Notes: generated by a model not told the origin, from the letters alone. A DNA stretch of 64,000 bases from Pseudomonadota bacterium (GCA_043809315.1 JAZDDX010000007.1:1-64000); one strand, 5' to 3'. Positions 23,263-38,310 are shown, counted from the first letter of the stretch. Numbers and translations: made by a program.

Positions 23263-23279
23263 TGGCGGAGGAGGAGGGA
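23263..23279 (-). repeat. att direct repeat: tRNA-Ser(TGA) 3' end copy
   Basis: TGGCGGAGGAGGAGGGA, identical to 29003-29019 and 38219-38235. Confidence 0.8.
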
Positions 23280-23366
23280 GGCTTTAAGAAGACCGAACAG
23301 TTTTTGTTGCAATGCAATAATCGCGGAGTTAGGTTCCGTTTCGATTTCTTCTTCAGGAGGTTGTTG

Positions 23367-27692: not shown

Positions 27693-27717
27693 TGGCAGGG
27701 GAGGAGGGATTCGAACC
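27693..27717 (-). repeat. Degenerate tRNA 3'-end copy (att scar)
   Basis: TGGCAGGGGAGGAGGGATTCGAACC, 23/25 identical to the tRNA-Ser(TGA) 3' end. Confidence 0.75.
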
Positions 27718-29002: not shown

Positions 29003-29019
29003 TGGCGGAGGAGGAGGGA
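29003..29019 (-). repeat. att direct repeat (distal end of island C)
   Basis: 17-bp identity to 38219-38235. Confidence 0.9.
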
Positions 29020-29662
29020 AGCAGTCCCGCCCTTCGTAACTACGCCAACAAAAAGGAAAATACTTTCCGATCAGCAGGATAGCAATTCCTCAATATCATC
29101 CGATTACATCGGTTCACACGCATTTACAGGTCACCTGTTACCGAAATGTTACCGTAACCGATCATTCCCCTCCCCCACCTCCACCACCTTTTCGCTGGCG
29201 ACAAACGGCGGAGAGGAAACAAAAGCTGAATTGCGCTTCCAACCTTCTTCCGAGGGAGTTCCCTTCGGGTTCCTACGGGGTTCTTTCACAGTTCACTGGT
29301 AGGAACTCCGAAAGAACTCTGGCCAAAACAACAAGTGTCTGAATTCACAAATCAAAGAACGTGCCCCGGAAACTTTTTCCTCTCGCATTTTCCGCCGACC
29401 ACACCCCCACTACCATGTAAAAAAATGATTTTTGGGGTTGTGGTCGGTGCAAGAATGCTCGAGGGGTGGTTGGGGGCACGAAGAGAGATTTGGGATTCAA
29501 GAATGAGGTCTTTGGGTTGATAGAAGATGGAGAGTTTGGTTGATGGTTTGATGTTGGGAAGAGGCAAGGTGAGGGTGGACGTGTTCGGGGTTGGTCGGTC
29601 TCCGGAAAACGGCTGTTTACTATATTCGCTAAATTCGTTATATTATCTAGTGTAGTAAAGTT

Positions 29663-30253
29663 ATGAAAACGTCACCCCGGGAAAGACTGCTAACGTTTCT
29701 GAGCCGGAACGACTTCGCCACCCTCAAGGAGGCACATGCCTTCGGGGTCAGCAAGATGACCCTTTCCCACATGGTTCGAGGGGGGGTGCTCCACCGCCCG
29801 GCCAAACGCATTTACACAACCAAGACAGGTTGGCTGGCCGATCCCCTGCGGCGATATGCCCCCGCCTGCACCCTGTACGCTGATGCCGTGGTCTGCGGAG
29901 TATCGGCACTAGCCTATTACGATCTGACCGACGAAGAGGAAAAGAAGATCTGGCTCGCGTTTCCCCAGCACCATCGGATCGTCAACCAGGAGTACCGGCT
30001 GACCTACCCCAGCGGCCCGTCATACACCCTGGGTGTTACCCGGCATACGGTCGGCAATCGGGAGGTGCGCATTTACAGCCCAGAGAAGAGCGTGGTGGAC
30101 GCGTTCAAGTATCTTCCGATTGATGTTGCTCACAAGGCCGTTCGGGCTTACCTCAAGCGGAAAGACAGGGACCTCGACAAGCTCTCGAAATATGGCAAAC
30201 AGATGCGAAAGCCGCTGGATGATATTCTCACGGTACTTCTTTCGGATGAGTAG
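29663..30253 (+). CDS. AbiEi-family antitoxin
   Basis: N-terminal wHTH; SALAYYDLTD, IYSPEKSVVDAF; upstream of abiEii. Confidence 0.85.
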   Translation: MKTSPRERLLTFLSRNDFATLKEAHAFGVSKMTLSHMVRGGVLHRPAKRIYTTKTGWLADPLRRYAPACTLYADAVVCGVSALAYYDLTDEEEKKIWLAFPQHHRIVNQEYRLTYPSGPSYTLGVTRHTVGNREVRIYSPEKSVVDAFKYLPIDVAHKAVRAYLKRKDRDLDKLSKYGKQMRKPLDDILTVLLSDE

Positions 30254-30256
30254 CCC

Positions 30257-31105
30257 ATGACGACCAACGCCGAAAGCATTCGGGCCAAGCTCCTGACTGT
30301 CTCCAAAGAGAAGAAGATCATCTTCCAGGATCTGCTGAACCGCTATGGAGCGGAACAGTTCTTGGCGCGACTTTCGGCGTCCCGATATGTGGAACGTTTT
30401 ATCTTCAAAGGCGGATCGCTTCTTACCTACCTGATCGAGTCTGACCGCCGAACCAAGGATCTCGATTTTTCTGTTCTCAGGATCGGCCACGAGGTTGAAA
30501 AGGCTCTCGAGGTCATCAAAAAGATCTTGGGAATCACCCTCGACGACGGGCTGACCTGGCTTTCTCCTCAAGGGGCGCCGCTACGCCACCCGGAGTTGGT
30601 TTATCCGGGCCTACGGATTAAATGCCCATTCAAGCTGGGCACGGCAAAAGGGATGGTTCGAATGGACCTGGCGGCTGGAGATCTCGTCGAACCCAGGAAG
30701 ATCTTTCTCGCAAGAATTCGTTACCGAGGCAAACCGCTGATCGGACCGGATTTTTCCATTATGGCTTACCCGCCTGAAACGATCTTCGCCGAGAAGATGC
30801 AAATCGCCGTCAAGCGGGGCGGCCAAAATACGCGAATGAAGGATTACTACGATCTGTTCAAACTCGCTCAGTCAAAGACTCTGGAGCCGTCTCTTCTTCG
30901 GCGCAGCATTGAGCGAACTTTCAGCAAACGCACCACAACGTTCACGACCACCTTGGACCTGAGCGACGAGAATTTGAAGAAGTTGCAGGTTTACTGGTCT
31001 GCGTATCTCCGAAAAATGACCATCACCGATGCGCCCGGAGCATTGAGGGAGGTTGTTCGCTTGGTTAACCGCCTATTAGAGGCGATTCACAAAGATGAAC
31101 GATAG
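30257..31105 (+). CDS. AbiEii-family nucleotidyltransferase toxin
   Basis: SIRAKL, FIFKGG, RRTKDLDF, YPPETIFAEK, NTRMKDYYD. Confidence 0.9.
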   Translation: MTTNAESIRAKLLTVSKEKKIIFQDLLNRYGAEQFLARLSASRYVERFIFKGGSLLTYLIESDRRTKDLDFSVLRIGHEVEKALEVIKKILGITLDDGLTWLSPQGAPLRHPELVYPGLRIKCPFKLGTAKGMVRMDLAAGDLVEPRKIFLARIRYRGKPLIGPDFSIMAYPPETIFAEKMQIAVKRGGQNTRMKDYYDLFKLAQSKTLEPSLLRRSIERTFSKRTTTFTTTLDLSDENLKKLQVYWSAYLRKMTITDAPGALREVVRLVNRLLEAIHKDER

Positions 31106-31142
31106 ACTCGAACTTGCTATCCAACCGCAAAGAAATCTTAGG

Positions 31143-31832
31143 TTAAACTGGGGCAAAAAACTGTCTCCAGCTCAGGTAGGCCCCAACGACCAAGAAGGTG
31201 ACTCCCGTGATCTGTTTCCCCCATCGCTCGAGCCGGCCAAGGATGTCGAGCACCCTTCCGACGTAGTTCGCGCCGAAAGCGAGAAGAGTTGCGACCATGA
31301 CAACGGGCAAGGCCGTTCCAATCCCGAATAGCGTCGGAAGAATCACCGGCGACTGATTCGTGATCGCCAGAGGGATCAGGCTGCCGAAATAAAGTCCGGC
31401 GGACACCGGACAGAAAGAGAGACCAAAGATGAATCCCAGGAAGCCGATACCCCATAACCCCCATGCCTTGGCTCTATGAAAAGATCTCTCGCCCAGACTC
31501 CAGGAAGGGAGGGGAATTCGAATCCACCCGAGGACGATGAGACCGATGACAAAAAGCAACGGACCGAGAACCTGGTTCATTCGTCGTTGGAGAAACCATG
31601 CGACTGGGGGAATCTGAAGCAGGCCCGCAACAAGGAACGCTCCAAGGAGGACATATGCTGCGGCACGCCCCAGAGTGTAAATGAGCCCGCTGACGAAGAT
31701 CCTTTTTGAGGAGGTCACCTCACTCCCAATAAAGGAGATCGCTGCAATGTTGGTTGCCAGCGGGCACGGACTGATGGAGGTCAGAATCCCCAACCAGAGC
31801 GCCGTGACCGCGCCGACAAGGGCTGTGATCAA
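31143..31832 (-). CDS. DsbD/CcdA-like membrane protein (ArsG-like)
   Basis: LGILTSISPCPLATNIAAIS, LSFCPVSA; TTG start overlaps the upstream stop. Confidence 0.75.
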   Translation of the reverse strand: MITALVGAVTALWLGILTSISPCPLATNIAAISFIGSEVTSSKRIFVSGLIYTLGRAAAYVLLGAFLVAGLLQIPPVAWFLQRRMNQVLGPLLFVIGLIVLGWIRIPLPSWSLGERSFHRAKAWGLWGIGFLGFIFGLSFCPVSAGLYFGSLIPLAITNQSPVILPTLFGIGTALPVVMVATLLAFGANYVGRVLDILGRLERWGKQITGVTFLVVGAYLSWRQFFAPV

Positions 31833-32311
31833 GAAGGACCCTCCAGATACTGCCGCACCTCTGCAACGACGTATTGTTTGTAAGCATTCTCGTCCCGCAC
31901 AAGCTCCCAAATCTTCGCCAGGCTTTTCCACCGTTTCTGCGTCCCATTGTCCACATCCGCAACCACAAGCGACTTCGTGAAGAGCTGGTAATCCTTCACA
32001 AAGTGTTCGTTTCCCCCGTCTTCAACGTTGATCGCCTGCCAGACCAGATTTCCGTTCTTCATCTCCTTACCGAAGTTCTCCTGAATCGCCTCGCGGGCGA
32101 GGTTTTCCAGCTTGTGACATGTGACGCATCGTAGGGAACCGTGGAAGTAATAAACGCGGACAAAGTGTGCCTGGACAGGAATCTTGGGAGCATTCGATTG
32201 CGCCGCGGTTTGGGGTAGCTCCGTCCGTTTCGGACGCTGGCCCACCAAGAAAAAGGCGATCCCCAAAACGAGCAAGACGGTCGTCTGAAAAACAATGTCT
32301 TTTCGACTCAT
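31829..32311 (-). CDS. Periplasmic thioredoxin-like protein (ArsF-like)
   Basis: N-terminal anchor; VYYFHGSLRCVTC; NEHFVKDYQL.TKSL. Confidence 0.75.
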   Translation of the reverse strand: MSRKDIVFQTTVLLVLGIAFFLVGQRPKRTELPQTAAQSNAPKIPVQAHFVRVYYFHGSLRCVTCHKLENLAREAIQENFGKEMKNGNLVWQAINVEDGGNEHFVKDYQLFTKSLVVADVDNGTQKRWKSLAKIWELVRDENAYKQYVVAEVRQYLEGPS

Positions 32312-32727
32312 TCCAATTCCTTTCCGGTCAGCCGTTCTTGGCAACCGACGTCGCGCAGAACCGTCTCCATCCGCTCTACAACGGCATCGACGTGGGAGCG
32401 GACCACCGGGGTTTCCCCCTTGACCATACCCAGGTTTGTCAGGCGAAGGTGGCGCACTTCGGCAAAGCCTTTTTGTTCCAGCAGGGTGCGGGCGCAATCC
32501 TTCTCGCACCCGTCGATCGCCGCGATCGACTCGGCCCCTCGGGCAGCATCCAGGTACATTGGAATTCCGGCACCAATCGCCGCGAGGCAACCGAGACGAA
32601 CTTTTTCATGGCGCCCCAGAGCCCGACCGGCCTGATCGGCGATCGCCCCCAGATTCGATGCTCCCGAGCATACGTACAAAAGTGTGACTGCGGTGCCTCC
32701 GCACGAACAGGTCGTCCCACCAGCCAC
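32308..32727 (-). CDS. DGC-domain putative zinc-binding protein
   Basis: CSGASNLG, GCLAAIG, AIDGCEKDCA. Confidence 0.85.
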   Translation of the reverse strand: MAGGTTCSCGGTAVTLLYVCSGASNLGAIADQAGRALGRHEKVRLGCLAAIGAGIPMYLDAARGAESIAAIDGCEKDCARTLLEQKGFAEVRHLRLTNLGMVKGETPVVRSHVDAVVERMETVLRDVGCQERLTGKELE

Positions 32728-32729
32728 GT

Positions 32730-32978
32730 TTATTTCTTTGCCGCTGCGTTCATCAGCCATGTCACGATCTCCGATGTTTCCGGAATTCTCCCGGCCGATT
32801 TCACCTCGCCGTCCACCACGAGCGCGGGCGTCATCATCACGCGGAATTTCATGATGTCAGCCATGTTCTCCAATTTTTCCAGCTCCACCGTCAACCCCGA
32901 GGCCGCCACGGCTTTCTCAGTCTCCGCGTACAGCTTCTTGCACTTTGTGCATCCCGGTCCCAATACCTGGATCTTCAT
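32730..32978 (-). CDS. Small redox-active thioredoxin family protein
   Basis: MKIQVLGPGCTKC...VMMTPALVVDGEVKSAGRIP. Confidence 0.9.
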   Translation of the reverse strand: MKIQVLGPGCTKCKKLYAETEKAVAASGLTVELEKLENMADIMKFRVMMTPALVVDGEVKSAGRIPETSEIVTWLMNAAAKK

Positions 32979-32986
32979 CGTTCCTC

Positions 32987-34441
32987 CTATAAGAGAATGT
33001 TAAACACATATCCGACCACTATGATTCCCGCGCCCACGACGGCTGCGAATGTCACAATGAGCGGAACCTTCAGAACTTTACGTAAAATGATCATCTCCGG
33101 CAGCGACAGGCCGATGACCGACATCATGAATGCCAAGGCCGTGCCCAACGCCGCCCCCTTACCCAACAGCGCCTGCACCACGGGAATGATTCCGGCTGCA
33201 TTGGAATACATGGGAATGCCGATCAGGACGGCGAGCGGAACCGACCACCAGGAATCCTTGCCCATGATGGAAGCCATGAAGTCTTGCGGCACATAGCCGT
33301 GAATCCCAGCACCCACTGCAATACCGGCCAACACGTAGGGCCAGACTCTTCCGACGATCTCTTTGACGGCGTCGCGCCCGAACCTCGCGCGGTCCTCCCA
33401 AGTCACGTTGGTTTCGGCTCCAACAGAAGCTGGTTGTCCCGCGTCGTCCGTCGTCCGATAGACCCATTCCTCGACCCACTTTTCCAAGTGGAGTCTTCCG
33501 ATGACCCACCCGGCTACCATCGCAATGGCTAGGCCGGTACCGAGATAAAGTGCGGCGACCTTCCAGCCAAATAGGCCGAACAGGAGCACCAGCGCCACCT
33601 CGTTGACCATGGGAGCGGAGATCAAGAAGGAAAACGTCACCCCTAGCGGCACCCCGCTGGTCACGAAGCCGATAAAGAGCGGCACGGCGGAGCAGGAGCA
33701 GAACGGCGTCGGGATGCCTAAAATCGCAGCCAGAACATTGCCAACGGCCTCCCGTTTTCCGACCAGGATCCGGCGCGTGCGTTCCGGCGTGAAAAACGAC
33801 CGCAAAACCCCCACTCCGAACACAACCAAGGTGAGCAGCAGGACTACCTTTGGAGCCTCGAATACAAAAAACTCCACGGCAGCGGCTATGTGGCTGCCTG
33901 AAGACATGCCGAGCATCTGGTACGTGAAGAACTTTGAGAAAACCTCAAGATGTCGGTAGACCGCCCACCACACAACGACACCAAGACAAATGAGGAGTAC
34001 CTGAAGCCATCGTCGTGGTGGTTGGTCCTTAGTCGTAAGGAACGCTTCGATGCGGCGGCGTAGCTCGTCCCGTGTCTTTCGGAAAGCGTTGAGCCGATCC
34101 TCTTCCGAGCCTGTCACAGCTGCCGGATCGGGGAGCCCCCAATGGAGACGGCGGGCATTTCCCAGGAATACGGGGCACTCCTCTTCGGCGCACAGGGTGA
34201 TGACCGTATCGACCTCACCGGTGGGTACCTCCGCAACAGCTTTGGAACGATGACCCGAAATATCAATCCCGATCTCCCGCATAATGGTGATGGCTTCCGG
34301 GCGGACAGCGGTCGGCCTCGATCCAGCGGACCAGACTGGAACCGAGGAAGGCAAAATGGAACGTGCAATTCCTTCCGCCATTTGGCTCCGGGCCGAATTC
34401 GCCACGCAAAGGAAAAGGATTCGAGATTCCCGCTCAGTCAC
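32987..34441 (-). CDS. Fusion of thioredoxin-coupled arsenate reductase (ArsC) and ArsP-family permease
   Basis: N-terminal [32 protein letters not shown]-terminal [30 protein letters not shown]. Confidence 0.88.
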
Positions 34442-35528
34442 AGGTAGCGCACCTCACGGATTCGACTTTGGCCTTGTCCGACGGGAAGTAACGTGACCGG
34501 AGCCGGAGCGCGACGTTCACCAAGCCGATCAATACTGGCACTTCGACCAGGGGACCGATTACCGCCGCAAAGGCCGCCCCGTGATTGATGCCGAACGTGG
34601 CGATAGCCACAGCGATGGCCAGTTCGAAATTGTTCGATGCCGCGGTGAAGGAAAGGGTTGCCGATTGACCATACGTCGCACCCACCTTCTTGCTCATGAA
34701 GAAGGAGACGAAGAACATGACGACGAAGTAGATGAGGAGCGGGATCGCAATCCGCACCACATCGAACGGGAGTTGCACGATGTACTCCCCCTTGAGCGAG
34801 AACATCACGACGATGGTAAAGAGCAGGGCAATGAGCGTGATCGGGCTGATCTTCGGAATGAACTTTTCGTGATACCAAGTCTTGTTCTTCCACTTGATCA
34901 GCACAAAGCGCGTCGTCACCCCCGCAAGGAATGGAATCCCCAGGTAGATAAAGACGCTCTTGGCGATCTCTCCGATGGTCACATGGACCGCCACGCCCTT
35001 GAGGCCGAACCAGGTCGGCAGCACGGTGATGAATACGTAGGCGTAGACCGAAAAGAAGAGAACCTGGAAGATCGAGTTAAACGCCACCAGACCCGCGCAG
35101 TATTCGGTGTCGCCGTCCGCCAGATCATTCCAGACGATGACCATAGCAATACACCGCGCCAAGCCGATCATGATCAACCCGACCATGTACTCGGGCTTGT
35201 CATGCAAGAAGAGAACGGCGAGACCGAACATCAGAATAGGTCCTACGACCCAGTTCTGAACCAAAGAGAGTGAAAGGACTTTCACATTCTTGAAGACCGG
35301 CCCCATGTCCTCATAACGGACCTTGGCTAGCGGCGGGTACATCATAAGAATAAGGCCGATGGCAATTGGTATTGACGTGGTTCCAACACTAAGACGGTTT
35401 AGCGCCGGAACGACACCAGGAACCAAATAGCCGAGAAACACCCCGAATCCCATCGCAAGAAAGATCCAGAGCGTGAGGAAACGATCTAAGAACGAAAGTG
35501 CTGCAAAAGCTCCTGATTTCACTCTCAC
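34434..35528 (-). CDS. acr3: Arsenite efflux transporter Acr3
   Basis: [53 protein letters not shown]. Confidence 0.95.
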
Positions 35529-35980
35529 TTTACCCTCCCTGCATCCGCAGACTGCCTAATCGGCTTTGTCGTTCCGCTCTCAAAACAGTCAAGAACCCTG
35601 CAACAGGTTGCTGAAAGGTCTCTCGCTTCGACCGTTGCGGACAATTTTCTGAGCGAAGCCCTTATGCGTTTAAGGTCCCGGATCTTTGCTTCCACCTCAA
35701 CCAGCTTTGCATCGGCCGTTGTTTTCAAATCCCCGCAGGTTCCCCTGGGGCTTACGTTGAGTTCCAGAAGTTCCTTGATCTCCTTCAACGTGAATCCAAG
35801 CTCTTGGGCCCGCTTAACGAACTCGATTCTCCGGCTGTCATCCGGAGCATATTGCCGGTATCCGGTGCCTTTGGACGGTTTTCGGATGATCCCCTTTCGC
35901 TCGTAGAAACGGACCGTTTCCACGCCGACGCCGGATTGTTTTGCTAGATCACCAATCGTGAACTTTCGGCCCGAAGACAT
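35525..35980 (-). CDS. MerR-family metal-responsive transcriptional regulator
   Basis: [36 protein letters not shown]; Cys82, Cys126, Cys127, Cys132. Confidence 0.92.
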
Positions 35981-35986
35981 GGCCGA

Positions 35987-36018
35987 ATGTTACACCCCGT
36001 ACTAAGGTACGGAGTCAA
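35987..36018 (-). promoter_or_regulatory. MerR-type promoter/operator
   Basis: Minus strand TTGACT-CCGTACCTTAGTACGG-GGTG-TAACAT: 20-nt spacer containing a CCGTAC/GTACGG dyad. Confidence 0.88.
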
Positions 36019-36102
36019 GAGGTCAAAACAAAGACATTGGATGTATCGACAATAAAAAGTCAGTTCGATTCGATAGAAATCAAAGAATTGCGACCGTCAT
36101 TC

Positions 36103-36807
36103 TCACTTCCGTCGGATTCCTTTGAAAAATTCCCTTCGTCGGTGTTTTTCAGTTTCCTGAAAAGCTTCCAACGATTTGAGAAAGGTTTCGCCAAAGCGTT
36201 TCTGGAGCGCCTCGTATACGAGTTTTTCGTGGAGTGCCCCGACACTCAGATGCAATTCGTTCGCTAACTGCCGCACGAAAGAGCTGATTTCCCGGCTATG
36301 GTACCGAGCGATCCCAATCAAAGCCGGCTTCTTCGTGTAATCGAGACGCTTCGCCCTGCCCTGATTCTGCGGCTTCTTCTTACGACGTACATAGACCTCG
36401 GGAGGATTCTCCAGCTCATCAACCAATACCCTTCGAATCACTTCGGAAAGACTGACCGCGTTCTTCTTTGCAACCCCTTCCAATTGACCTTGGGTCCGTT
36501 CATTGATAACCACCCGTAAATTCACGGTCTTATTCTGATTTGACCATTGAGGAGATGGGCCCTTGGGAAGTGATTCTCCCCATCTCATCCCCGTTTCATG
36601 ATCGACCAGGGTTGCATAGATAAACTCCGTGATCGTCTCCCCATAATCCAGCGCTCTCTCACCGAGCGCATTCCGGAATTCCGGCTCCAGCCGAAGAGTC
36701 ATAAAGAGCTTCCGTATGAGCGCGGTGGATAGGCTTGGAAGGATCTGAGTCCGCCGAAGAACCAGGTAATCGGAAAAAGTTGGCTTTTCCTTGGGTGCCC
36801 CCGTCAC
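36103..36807 (-). CDS. Hypothetical protein with ribbon-helix-helix-like segment(s), divergent from the integrase
   Basis: LRVVINERTQGQLEGVAKKNAVSLSEVIRRVL. Confidence 0.55.
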   Translation of the reverse strand: MTGAPKEKPTFSDYLVLRRTQILPSLSTALIRKLFMTLRLEPEFRNALGERALDYGETITEFIYATLVDHETGMRWGESLPKGPSPQWSNQNKTVNLRVVINERTQGQLEGVAKKNAVSLSEVIRRVLVDELENPPEVYVRRKKKPQNQGRAKRLDYTKKPALIGIARYHSREISSFVRQLANELHLSVGALHEKLVYEALQKRFGETFLKSLEAFQETEKHRRREFFKGIRRK

Positions 36808-36899
36808 AGACCCATAAATCTAAAGGAATTCAAGGAGATGCACAATGCACAGAGTACAGACTCTTGTGGCCTTGCATTCGATCTATCGTGGCCGTATGT

Positions 36900-38141
36900 A
36901 TGACTCATAAATACATGCACCTAGTTCGACGAGAGATTGCAACTCGACCCCCGAAAGAGCGGTGGATTCGAATCCATAACCACCCAGGAATTGCCCGCCT
37001 GGAGAAGTGGAACCCTGTTTTAAAGCGATGGATCGATCCACGCCATGATGCCTACTGCCGCCTGAAGGTATTTTGCGCCTACCGGCGAATACGCGTCCTA
37101 GGCAAGAGCACACTCCAAAAGAAGCACTTCCAAACTATTCGCGAAGCCAAAGCCTGGCGGCTGGAGGCCAATCCCGAGCCGACAGCTCGCAAGGCGATCC
37201 AGGTAACGGTTGGGGACGCGATCGAAGGGTGGAGGGAGTGGTCCAAACCTCCAAGGTTTCGAAAGACTTCCTGGCTTCAATACGCCAAAGACGTTCGCCA
37301 CGCGGAGTCCCTCAAAGATGCCCCGATCGAAGGACTGACTGCACAGGATATTGACCGCTGGCTCCAGCACCTCAAAGATCCGTCATATCCCAAACAGAAG
37401 ACACGGGTGTCGTTCGAACGCGAGCTCAGCACACTTCAGACGATCTTCCGATGGTATCGGGAACGTCGAAATGAGAAGTTTCAGCACCCGATCCTGGCCC
37501 GACACAGGCAGGACTCGTACTTTCGGGATCCTCCCCTCGGGGGCATCGAGGTTCTCTCCGCCCATCAGGCGGAGGAATTCTTCGCCCGAATCTCCGCCAG
37601 ACATTCACCCGTCTTTCAGCGGACCGCGGCCCTACAACTCTTCGCCGGCTTACGAATCGGCGAGGCGTGCGGTCTTTATTGGGATTGCGTCGATTTCGAA
37701 GGAAGAACAATCACGGTTCGTCGGTCGTGCATTTGGCCCCAGCCTGCGATGAGGGCAGAGATCCAGGACACGACCAAGACCAGCTCGGTCCGAAGCATCC
37801 CGATCGTAGACCGCCTCTACGATCTTATAGTGACATGGAAAGCCGAAGACGGAGAGATGGAGATCGTCTGCCATAAGGCCGGGCGGCTGATCCGGCGGAA
37901 TACCGTGGCCGGAGCCTACGGGAAGGTGTTCCGACAGCTTGAACTTCGGGTCAAGAGCGTCACCCACATTCTCCGCCGGACGTTTGCCACCCTTCACGCC
38001 GAACAGACCCGAGACCTGGCTGCCACTCAGGCGCTCCTGGGACATACTGACATTCAGACGACGCAGATTTACGCGAAGGTAACAGATGGAGCCGTAAGAA
38101 GGTCGATGCCTGATTTCGCGTTCGGCCGGAGAAAATCCTGA
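36900..38141 (+). CDS. Tyrosine recombinase/integrase
   Basis: AGLRIGEACGL, TKT, HILRRTFA, LLGH, TTQIY; start uncertain. Confidence 0.93.
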   Translation: MTHKYMHLVRREIATRPPKERWIRIHNHPGIARLEKWNPVLKRWIDPRHDAYCRLKVFCAYRRIRVLGKSTLQKKHFQTIREAKAWRLEANPEPTARKAIQVTVGDAIEGWREWSKPPRFRKTSWLQYAKDVRHAESLKDAPIEGLTAQDIDRWLQHLKDPSYPKQKTRVSFERELSTLQTIFRWYRERRNEKFQHPILARHRQDSYFRDPPLGGIEVLSAHQAEEFFARISARHSPVFQRTAALQLFAGLRIGEACGLYWDCVDFEGRTITVRRSCIWPQPAMRAEIQDTTKTSSVRSIPIVDRLYDLIVTWKAEDGEMEIVCHKAGRLIRRNTVAGAYGKVFRQLELRVKSVTHILRRTFATLHAEQTRDLAATQALLGHTDIQTTQIYAKVTDGAVRRSMPDFAFGRRKS

Positions 38142-38218
38142 GACCTGTTACCTTTTGTTACCTTAATGGTGTTTTGGGTGAGTGTGATCTGAATGTTTTC
38201 AACTGGTTAAGAATTTTT

Positions 38219-38310
38219 TGGCGGAGGAGGAGGGATTCGAACCCCCGATACGAATCTCTTCGTATGCCGGTTTTCAAGACCGGTGCCTTCAACCACTCGG
38301 CCACTCCTCC
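38219..38310 (-). tRNA. tRNA-Ser(TGA)
   Basis: GGAGGAGTGGCCGAGTGG...CCGGT-CT TGA AA-ACCGG, long variable arm, CCA. Confidence 0.95.

Follow-up and report, generated by a model that had tools for sequence, protein, structure and literature searches.

Bacterial arsenic-resistance (ars) operons are commonly regulated by ArsR proteins, in which three types of As(III) site, plus a new one, have been distinguished (PMC11868830; here and below, sources are cited for the portions of their text that were available). In AfArsR, the As(III) site consists of Cys95, Cys96 and Cys102, a CCx5C motif (PMC11868830; PMC11672702), and SpArsR prefers organoarsenicals, using two cysteines (PMC11868830). MerR-type proteins stay bound to DNA and activate transcription by distorting promoters whose -35 and -10 hexamers lie 19-20 bp apart (PMC11672702). 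A 2024 review places As(III) sensors under ArsR only, and in its available text lists Hg, Zn, Cd/Pb, Cu/Ag/Au, Co, Fe, Ni and redox signals as the effectors of MerR proteins (PMC11672702); the available part of PMC10832572 mentions only a Hg-sensing MerR2 that targets arsR. A full-text literature search found no MerR-family arsenic sensor, with most subscription journals outside its coverage, so a prior description is possible. Here we analyze an ars operon headed by a MerR-family regulator in a Pseudomonadota bacterium (GCA_043809315.1, JAZDDX010000007.1:1-64000; this whole stretch of 64,000 nucleotides (nt) is the window, and positions are counted from its first letter). From the sequence, we consider it likely that the regulator is a metalloid sensor and the autoregulated activator of acr3-arsCP-arsE-DGC-arsF-arsG, sensing As(III) or trivalent organoarsenicals.

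Like the ArsR/SmtB repressors R773 ArsR, AfArsR, CgArsR and SpArsR, the regulator would be the product of the first, autoregulated gene of an ars operon. Those repressors sense through clustered cysteines whose positions vary between lineages, a feature that has its counterpart here, and the CCX4C motif of the window regulator resembles the CCx5C of AfArsR. The folds are unrelated, however, and the window regulator has no ArsR-type helix-turn-helix (HTH). Whereas As(III) releases ArsR/SmtB repressors from DNA, we infer that the window regulator remains bound and activates.

Among the closest described systems are the mercury sensors of Tn501 and Tn21, which share the fold and domains of the window regulator (∼40% identity in a structure alignment with PDB 5CRL), the half-sites CCGTAC/GTACGG, the TTGACT -35 hexamer, an over-long spacer, and Cys82 and Cys126. 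The window regulator differs in having Val for Cys117, the additional Cys127 and Cys132, and a score of 120 bits against the 150.85 required by the Hg-MerR model TIGR02051. In Tn21 the spacer is 19 nt and merR is divergent, whereas here the spacer is 20 nt and the regulator is the first gene of an operon containing ars rather than mer genes, in a genome that shows no merT or merA. A regulator-first layout is typical of Gram-positive mer operons. The Gram-positive MerR of Bacillus megaterium MB1 (PDB 4UA1) matches in sequence (E 3e-22), but has the classical Hg triad and controls mer genes. Among ZntR, CadR and PbrR, ZntR gives the best NCBIfam score (121 bits) and CadR the best fold match. As here, the metal-binding loop of ZntR contains a vicinal CC, and helix 5 begins with a Cys (PMC11672702). 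The regulator nevertheless falls under the 143-bit ZntR cut-off, and its loop, CCRVLDC, has no His where ZntR has CCx3Hx4C. No P-type ATPase or cation-diffusion gene is linked to it, and the relatives that are so linked lack CX4C.

A MerR-family regulator heads a seven-gene ars operon

The operon spans 36018-31143 on the minus strand as one promoter followed by seven genes that overlap or are closely spaced. Its features, in the order of transcription, are as follows.

36018-36013, minus strand: -35 hexamer TTGACT; the same hexamer is found in the same place in most of 80 related loci
36012-35997, minus strand: operator dyad CCGTAC-CTTA-GTACGG, between the -35 and -10 hexamers, with the half-sites of the Tn21-type mer operator
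35992-35987, minus strand: -10 hexamer TAACAT, 20 nt after the -35 hexamer and 6 nt (TCGGCC) before the ATG at 35980
35980-35525, minus strand: MerR-family regulator, 151 amino acids (aa); Pfam MerR_1 70.9 bits, MerR-DNA-bind 71.3 bits
35528-34434, minus strand: acr3 arsenite efflux transporter; NCBIfam TIGR00832 456 bits, cut-off 283
34441-32987, minus strand: LMWP-type arsenate reductase (residues ∼8-135) fused to an ArsP-family permease (∼185-481); Pfam LMWPc and ArsP_1
32978-32730, minus strand: ArsE/MTH895-family thioredoxin-like protein; TIGR00412 102 bits, cut-off 62
32760-32308, minus strand: DGC-domain protein; PF08859 81 bits
32311-31829, minus strand: ArsF-family protein; NF040494 115.6 bits, cut-off 60
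31832 (likely TTG start) or 31931 (longest open reading frame) to 31143, minus strand: ArsG-family permease; NF040495 263 bits, cut-off 200

The junctions are, in order, GTGA (the acr3 GTG start overlapping the regulator stop), an 8-nt overlap, an 8-nt gap containing GGAGG, a 31-nt overlap, ATGA (the ArsF ATG overlapping the DGC stop) and TTGA (the likely TTG start of ArsG overlapping the arsF stop). Because every junction is either an overlap of 4-31 nt or a gap of 8 nt, the seven genes read as one translationally coupled operon. An earlier note on this DNA had described merR-like, acr3, arsC-arsP, trx, DGC, arsF-like and arsG-like genes as tightly coupled, and the open reading frame (ORF) calls, the Pfam and NCBIfam matches and the junctions agree with that description. 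The ArsC-ArsP fusion is a single ORF of 484 aa (NCBIfam TIGR02691 115 bits, under the cut-off of 174). Arsenite efflux (Acr3, over its cut-off) and arsenate reductase (an LMWP domain by Pfam) stand under one promoter, as expected of an ars operon. By Pfam and NCBIfam the operon products cover inorganic and organic arsenicals, and all genes of known family under the promoter are arsenic-related by NCBIfam. On the operon strand, an ORF of 234 aa (36103-36807, minus strand) with a weak match to DUF6290 (22.7 bits, below cut-off) ends 85 nt upstream of the -35 hexamer.

The promoter and operator

The promoter reads, in order, TTGACT, the dyad, GGTG, TAACAT, TCGGCC and the ATG at 35980. The sequence is exactly as given in the earlier note, which had likened it to the mer operator: over the first 22 nt of a Tn21-type mer promoter from an E. 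coli plasmid (TTGACTCCGTACATGAGTACGGAAGTAAGGT, i.e. TTGACT-CCGTACATGAGTACGGAAG-TAAGGT), 20 positions are identical in the window. The dyad is centered in the 20-nt spacer, the arrangement of MerR-family promoters, in which a dyad lies between hexamers spaced by 19-20 bp. A scan for ordinary sigma-70 promoters with 16-18-nt spacers misses this promoter, as expected for MerR-type spacing. In the whole genome of 2,422,068 bases (96% complete), CCGTAC-N4-GTACGG occurs once, in this promoter.

The likeness to mer is real, but it is not special to this locus. The arrangement TTGACT-CCGTA(C/G)-N4-GTACGG-rGTg-TAnnnT stands ahead of nearly all of the relatives described below, whether ars- or mer-linked, with the regulator as the first gene. 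Among 80 related loci, 13 have no TAnnnT in range and 13 have no operator by the pattern; where TAnnnT was found the spacer is 20 nt in 53 of 54. A distance of exactly 6 nt from the -10 hexamer to the first in-frame start codon, the one seen in the window, is found in 20 of the 32 ars-linked rows (the start being an ambiguous GTG inside GGAGGTG in three). In the ten mer-linked rows with a -10 hexamer the distance is 4-45 nt, and several of them have GGAGG leaders. Since its start codon follows the -10 hexamer by 6 nt, unlike those of several GGAGG-led mer-linked relatives, the regulator mRNA is probably leaderless. Most ars-linked loci have CCGTAC as the left arm of the operator and most mer-linked ones CCGTAG, and this position could serve for discrimination where both paralogues coexist.

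An operator that shares 20 of 22 nt with the mer promoter/operator of Tn21 also fits a regulator that senses Hg(II), Cd(II), Zn(II), Pb(II) or thiol/disulfide stress, with the ars operon forming part of a broader soft-metal response. The protein itself, its genomic setting and its relatives all bear on this alternative.

The regulator and its cysteines

The regulator has the N-terminal winged HTH of MerR proteins (PF13411 at 70.9 bits and PF00376 at 44 bits, each above its cut-off) and their dimerization helix and metal loop (PF09278 71.3 bits, together with the model and fold matches). Only MerR-family models match it, and the ArsR-type winged helix (PF01022 or PF12840) is not among the matches. 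The regulator is not an ArsR/SmtB member; it may serve as an ArsR-like sensor. An AlphaFold2 (AF2) model with a mean confidence (pLDDT) of 82.8 has a long helix at residues 82-116, a loop, and a short helix at residues 129-132. Foldseek searches with this model return CadR, MerR, PbrR and CueR at probability 1.00 and TM scores of 0.68-0.85, and PDB entries of the same four proteins are also matched in sequence.

The four cysteines are at positions 82, 126, 127 and 132. In the model, Cys82 begins the long helix, Cys126 and Cys127 lie in the loop, and Cys132 is in the short helix. In alignments with Tn501 MerR (PDB 5crl, E 6e-23) and Tn21 MerR, Cys82 and Cys126 are matched by cysteines and the Cys117 position is Val, so that the residues noted earlier (Cys82 and Cys126 kept, Val at 117, Cys127 and Cys132 extra) are seen in both. 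The regulator does not qualify as a Hg-MerR by score, by the Cys82/Cys117/Cys126 triad or by control of mer genes. In addition to TIGR02051, it falls short of PRK13752 (92.8 bits vs 261), and both ZntR models (PRK09514 and TIGR02043) are missed, at 121 bits vs 143 and 112.6 vs 168; all of its NCBIfam matches are below cut-off.

These data cut both ways for a soft-metal sensor. ZntR and MerR give the best curated-model scores and two Hg-site cysteines, Cys82 and Cys126, are retained, but every curated metal-sensor model is below cut-off, and the protein has neither the Hg ligand Cys117 nor the His found in CCx3Hx4C of ZntR (PMC11672702).

Regulators and resistance genes elsewhere in the genome

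The earlier note had found no arsR or mer gene in the island, and the result extends to the genome. None occurs in the operon. Genome-wide searches with HTH_5 and HTH_20 gave weak matches only, none ArsR-type, and MerT had no match in the 96%-complete genome. No MerA was over cut-off (best 356 bits vs 454). The HTH_5/HTH_20 matches were rejected as candidates for a distant ArsR because they are a 353-aa protein with HTH, HATPase_c_2 and DUF4325 domains and generic HTH proteins. With no ArsR found, there is no candidate in the genome for the distant ArsR that the earlier note had raised as a possible driver of the operon. The one other MerR_1 protein of the genome, on contig C8, contains no cysteine. 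Two further arsenic-type genes stand apart from the operon: an ArsM-like methyltransferase at C42:16554-17330 (41% identity to the probe) and a free LMWP ArsC-like gene at C26:26475-26870. The lack of visible mer genes in the genome and the arsenic-related nature of every known-family gene under the promoter both argue against a soft-metal response.

Relatives of the regulator precede many different ars gene sets

A protein database search yielded 2,248 homologues at E <= 0.001 among 2,309 candidates, of which the best 120 were aligned for their cysteines. In a scan of species genomes, 80 loci were kept of 568 confirmed relatives; together with 80 metagenome loci these make up a set of 160. 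Neighboring genes were classified by tblastn with the window proteins and by searches with Pfam (268 ORFs) and NCBIfam (23 ORFs).

Ars genes lie directly downstream and on the same strand in 32-33 of the 80 species-genome loci (33 when L012, which has ArsI-like and MIP genes downstream, is included; L071, with ars genes only upstream and on the other strand, is doubtful). The remaining loci comprise 17 with mer-type neighbors (MerT, MerC, MerB, HMA, a small thioredoxin or a pyridine-nucleotide oxidoreductase), 6 with a P-type ATPase and 25 that are unclear. The ars neighbors include Acr3, ArsC, ArsH (370 bits vs 292), ArsM (272-360 vs 263), ArsI/CadI (146-153 vs 116), MIP channels and ArsE-ArsP. 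They follow the regulator (R) in at least nine gene orders: R-acr3-arsC, R-arsC-acr3(-arsH), R-arsI-acr3-arsC, R-arsM-acr3-arsC, R-MIP-arsC, R-arsI-(arsC)-MIP, R-arsM, R-arsH and R-arsE-arsP. Such ars-linked relatives occur in Bdellovibrionota, Nitrospirota, Acidobacteriota, Bacteroidota and others, and one homologue (P0013) is present in cultured Bdellovibrio. Among the ORFs scanned beside these regulators, none has an ArsR-type HTH.

A close comparison is provided by G001, a member of another genus in the same family, in which a regulator of 87% identity with the same Cys pattern heads the same operon without the DGC gene. Its promoter layout is TTGACC-N20-TATCAT-N6-ATG, and the operon has 84-85% DNA identity to the window. 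The DGC gene, which in the window lies between arsE and arsF, is missing from the otherwise syntenic G001 operon, and the ArsC and ArsP parts that are fused in the window are adjacent there (L181, 5005-4607 and 4576-3575).

Such conservation bears on whether the regulator controls the operon at all. If it were simply a repressor, or what is left of a mer regulator that no longer functions, the ars genes would be constitutive or expressed from other promoters, and there are two conceivable sources of such transcription: a promoter-like site inside the operon (32860-32833) and read-through from the 234-aa ORF upstream. The internal site, the only one found by the 16-18-nt-spacer scan, is at chance level, with 2.4 expected. 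Moreover, the regulator stop overlaps the acr3 start, and three features are conserved across phyla and in G001: the regulator as first gene, the spacer of 20 nt and the start codon 6 nt past the -10 hexamer. This conservation of layout and spacing argues for selection on the whole regulator-ars unit, and we regard the absence of metal-responsive control as very unlikely.

Regulators from metagenomes are more distant, with no relative above 57% identity in the metagenome-contig scan. Seventy-nine of the 80 have the classical C...CPILEAL tail, many with mer-type genes downstream, and the sole CRVLDCF regulator among them (L095) has ArsI-like and MIP genes downstream. A regulator on an arsenite-oxidizer plasmid (H9/H10, 45% identity, near an arsenate reductase) was considered as an example from culture and dropped; it has the classical triad ACPGQGDIGTCTILEAL and no recognizable dyad upstream. 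In several mer-type relatives (L019, L031, L041, L049, L050, L066, L086 and L087) the regulator is often followed by a small Thioredoxin_3 protein with MerC or MerT, and this Thioredoxin_3 family is the NCBIfam 'ArsE' of ars operons.

A cysteine signature tracks linkage to ars genes

Among the best 120 homologues, 116 have CX4C at the Cys127-Cys132 position and 28 have CCX4C, in these 28 together with a Cys117 equivalent. Only four of the 120 are without a Cys117 equivalent, namely the window protein and the three relatives nearest to it (78-88% identity). The rewired pattern proposed earlier is thus present, but loss of Cys117 is not a hallmark of the family; the hallmark is Cys127 with Cys132, i.e. 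CX4C. Likewise, the CCx4C motif that the earlier note singled out for a survey of homologues is widespread as CX4C, but the full CCX4C is confined to a minority, and most homologues keep the Cys117 equivalent.

The small window subgroup, without a Cys117 equivalent and with a vicinal CC, might be specific for trivalent organoarsenicals (methylarsenite or aromatic) and not for As(III), binding them mainly through Cys126-Cys127 as in the two-Cys SpArsR. The operons of the window and G001 do carry ArsP and the ArsE/F/G families, which NCBIfam names for aromatic arsenicals. However, Cys126, Cys127 and Cys132 plus Cys82 suffice for an AsS3 site, acr3 and arsC in the same operon serve inorganic arsenic, and 28 of the 120 homologues combine CCX4C with a Cys117 equivalent, which leaves any tie of the vicinal pair to ArsP/ArsEFG conjectural. 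An exclusive specificity of this kind appears doubtful, more so than soft-metal sensing; ArsP with ArsE/F/G, the Cys117 loss and the vicinal pair may leave room for a preference for organoarsenicals.

The C-terminal ends of the relatives differ with their genomic context. Regulators linked to mer, ATPase or unknown genes end in ...AC.G.GP...CPILEALD with no later Cys. In ars-linked regulators the loop Cys is followed, five residues on, by a further Cys (C[RP]ILDCF), often together with GWKC or GKC at the C terminus; the alternative is a vicinal CC at the Cys116/117 position. Across the 160 loci, this signature (CX4C or vicinal CC) is present in 31 ars-linked and 6 other loci and absent from 3 ars-linked and 120 other loci (L152 being counted as ars-linked through a frame artefact). 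The earlier note had allowed that homologues with this Cys pattern might not be associated with ars genes; they are linked to them instead. Of the six exceptions, L012 and L017 sit in ars groups on the tree, L112, L120 and L169 match the pattern elsewhere than at the loop Cys, and L139, a locus without called neighbors, shows its vicinal CC at the Cys116/117 position. The loop and tail together hold three or more Cys in 32 of 34 ars-linked regulators vs 9 of 55 mer-linked ones.

This distribution is the remaining evidence on a soft-metal response. The variable Cys sets of the ars-linked members are what a loose thiol sensor might have, but the relatives with the signature are ars-linked, and it is mer or P-type ATPase genes that accompany those with the plain triad. 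Overall, we judge it improbable that the regulator is primarily a sensor of Hg(II), Cd(II), Zn(II), Pb(II) or thiol stress.

One ars-linked subgroup (L020, L022, L023, L026, L045, L065 and L079) has no Cys82, with T-G instead, and has four Cys in the loop and tail; the site in this subgroup must therefore lie within one subunit.

In an unrooted tree of 86 rows, a branch with 100/99 support separates 45 rows (16 mer, 23 unknown, 5 ATPase and the doubtful L071) from 41 rows that hold the remaining 32 ars-linked ones, the window included. Tn21 MerR falls on the ars-linked side of this split, with weak support. Mercury sensors could conceivably have been derived from such putative arsenic sensors and not the reverse, the tree being unrooted.

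A proposed mechanism and its weight

In the mechanism that we propose, a dimer of the regulator would sit on the CCGTAC-N4-GTACGG dyad between the -35 and -10 hexamers, whose 20-nt spacing would be too long for RNA polymerase and would leave the promoter weak. As(III) or a trivalent organoarsenical would bind Cys126, Cys127 and Cys132 (CCX4C) in the metal-binding loop and short C-terminal helix, possibly joined by Cys82 of the partner subunit. The arsenical-bound dimer would then adopt its activating form, underwinding the DNA and realigning the two hexamers. Transcription would begin with the A of the ATG or a nucleotide beside it, so that the regulator mRNA would have no leader, and the six downstream genes would be translated by coupling, so that the whole operon is induced, the regulator included. 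What we infer is which effector is sensed (As(III), Sb(III) or an organoarsenical), which ligands bind it, that DNA distortion activates the promoter, and where transcription starts.

Several observations weigh against this proposal. The top NCBIfam score is that of ZntR, about equal to that of MerR with both below cut-off, and a Zn, Cd or Hg response is therefore compatible with the sequence. The last 15 C-terminal residues are modeled at a pLDDT below 50. No single Cys triad is conserved: seven ars-linked regulators are without Cys82, six are without Cys132 and the window group is without Cys117, which makes the proposed binding site a guess, and the effector may not be the same for all members. 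The link between signature and context has a Fisher p of 1e-23, a value inflated by kinship. Only 3 independent contrasts fall on the starred branches of the tree; 1.7 of them on average go in the same direction and none goes in the opposite one, which is not significant in a sign test (p >= 0.5), and few independent evolutionary events underlie the association with ars linkage. The tree has two or more groups of ars-linked rows (21 rows at 80/83 and 13 rows at 99/95) and Tn21 MerR is weakly placed, so neither a single origin nor a direction of change follows from the tree. Finally, the genome contains a second acr3 (C28:38635-39651, 84% identity) with no operator and no recognizable regulator beside it, which leaves the arsenic control of the genome not fully explained.

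On the sequence evidence as a whole, the weight of the argument for an arsenical-responsive activator lies in the regulator persisting ahead of many different ars gene sets across phyla. With somewhat less assurance than for the locus itself, we also favor a broader reading, in which the locus belongs to a widespread MerR branch of activator-type arsenic sensors that replace ArsR in many lineages (Bdellovibrionota, Nitrospirota, Acidobacteriota and others). These would share a loop cluster of CX4C and a third Cys, convergent with the CCx5C of AfArsR, and a leaderless, positively autoregulated operon driven by DNA distortion. What is joined here is a known scaffold and a known operon type, in an undescribed and widespread way. 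If the reading is correct, the MerR repertoire would gain a metalloid, and the control of ars operons in lineages without an annotated arsR would be explained. Such regulators would also offer a natural system for studying how a trigonal Hg(II) site becomes an As(III) site, and an activator-type part for arsenic biosensors with low background, whose promoter would be silent without the protein.

The island setting

The ars operon lies on a putative 9.2-kb island (∼29020-38218), bounded by a 17-nt direct repeat of the tRNA-Ser(tga) 3' end at 29003-29019 and 38219-38235. Its other features are listed here.

29663-31105, plus strand: AbiEi-like/AbiEii (type IV toxin-antitoxin) pair; AbiEii 125 bits, AbiEi_4 22 bits, below cut-off
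36735-38141, plus strand: tyrosine integrase of the island; PF00589 77 bits
38219-38310, minus strand: tRNA-Ser(tga), identified by ARAGORN

The AbiEi/AbiEii pair is within the island, beside the ars operon where it ends. No match to the window integrase or AbiE proteins was returned by tblastn in the 16 kb around the G001 operon. The tRNA-Ser 3'-end motif TGGCGGAGGAGGAGGGA occurs in four copies that are 80-100% alike, at 23263-23282, 27693-27712, 29003-29022 and 38219-38238. The last two are the outer pair that bounds the ars island, and the two further left-hand copies suggest older or tandem insertions at the same tRNA.

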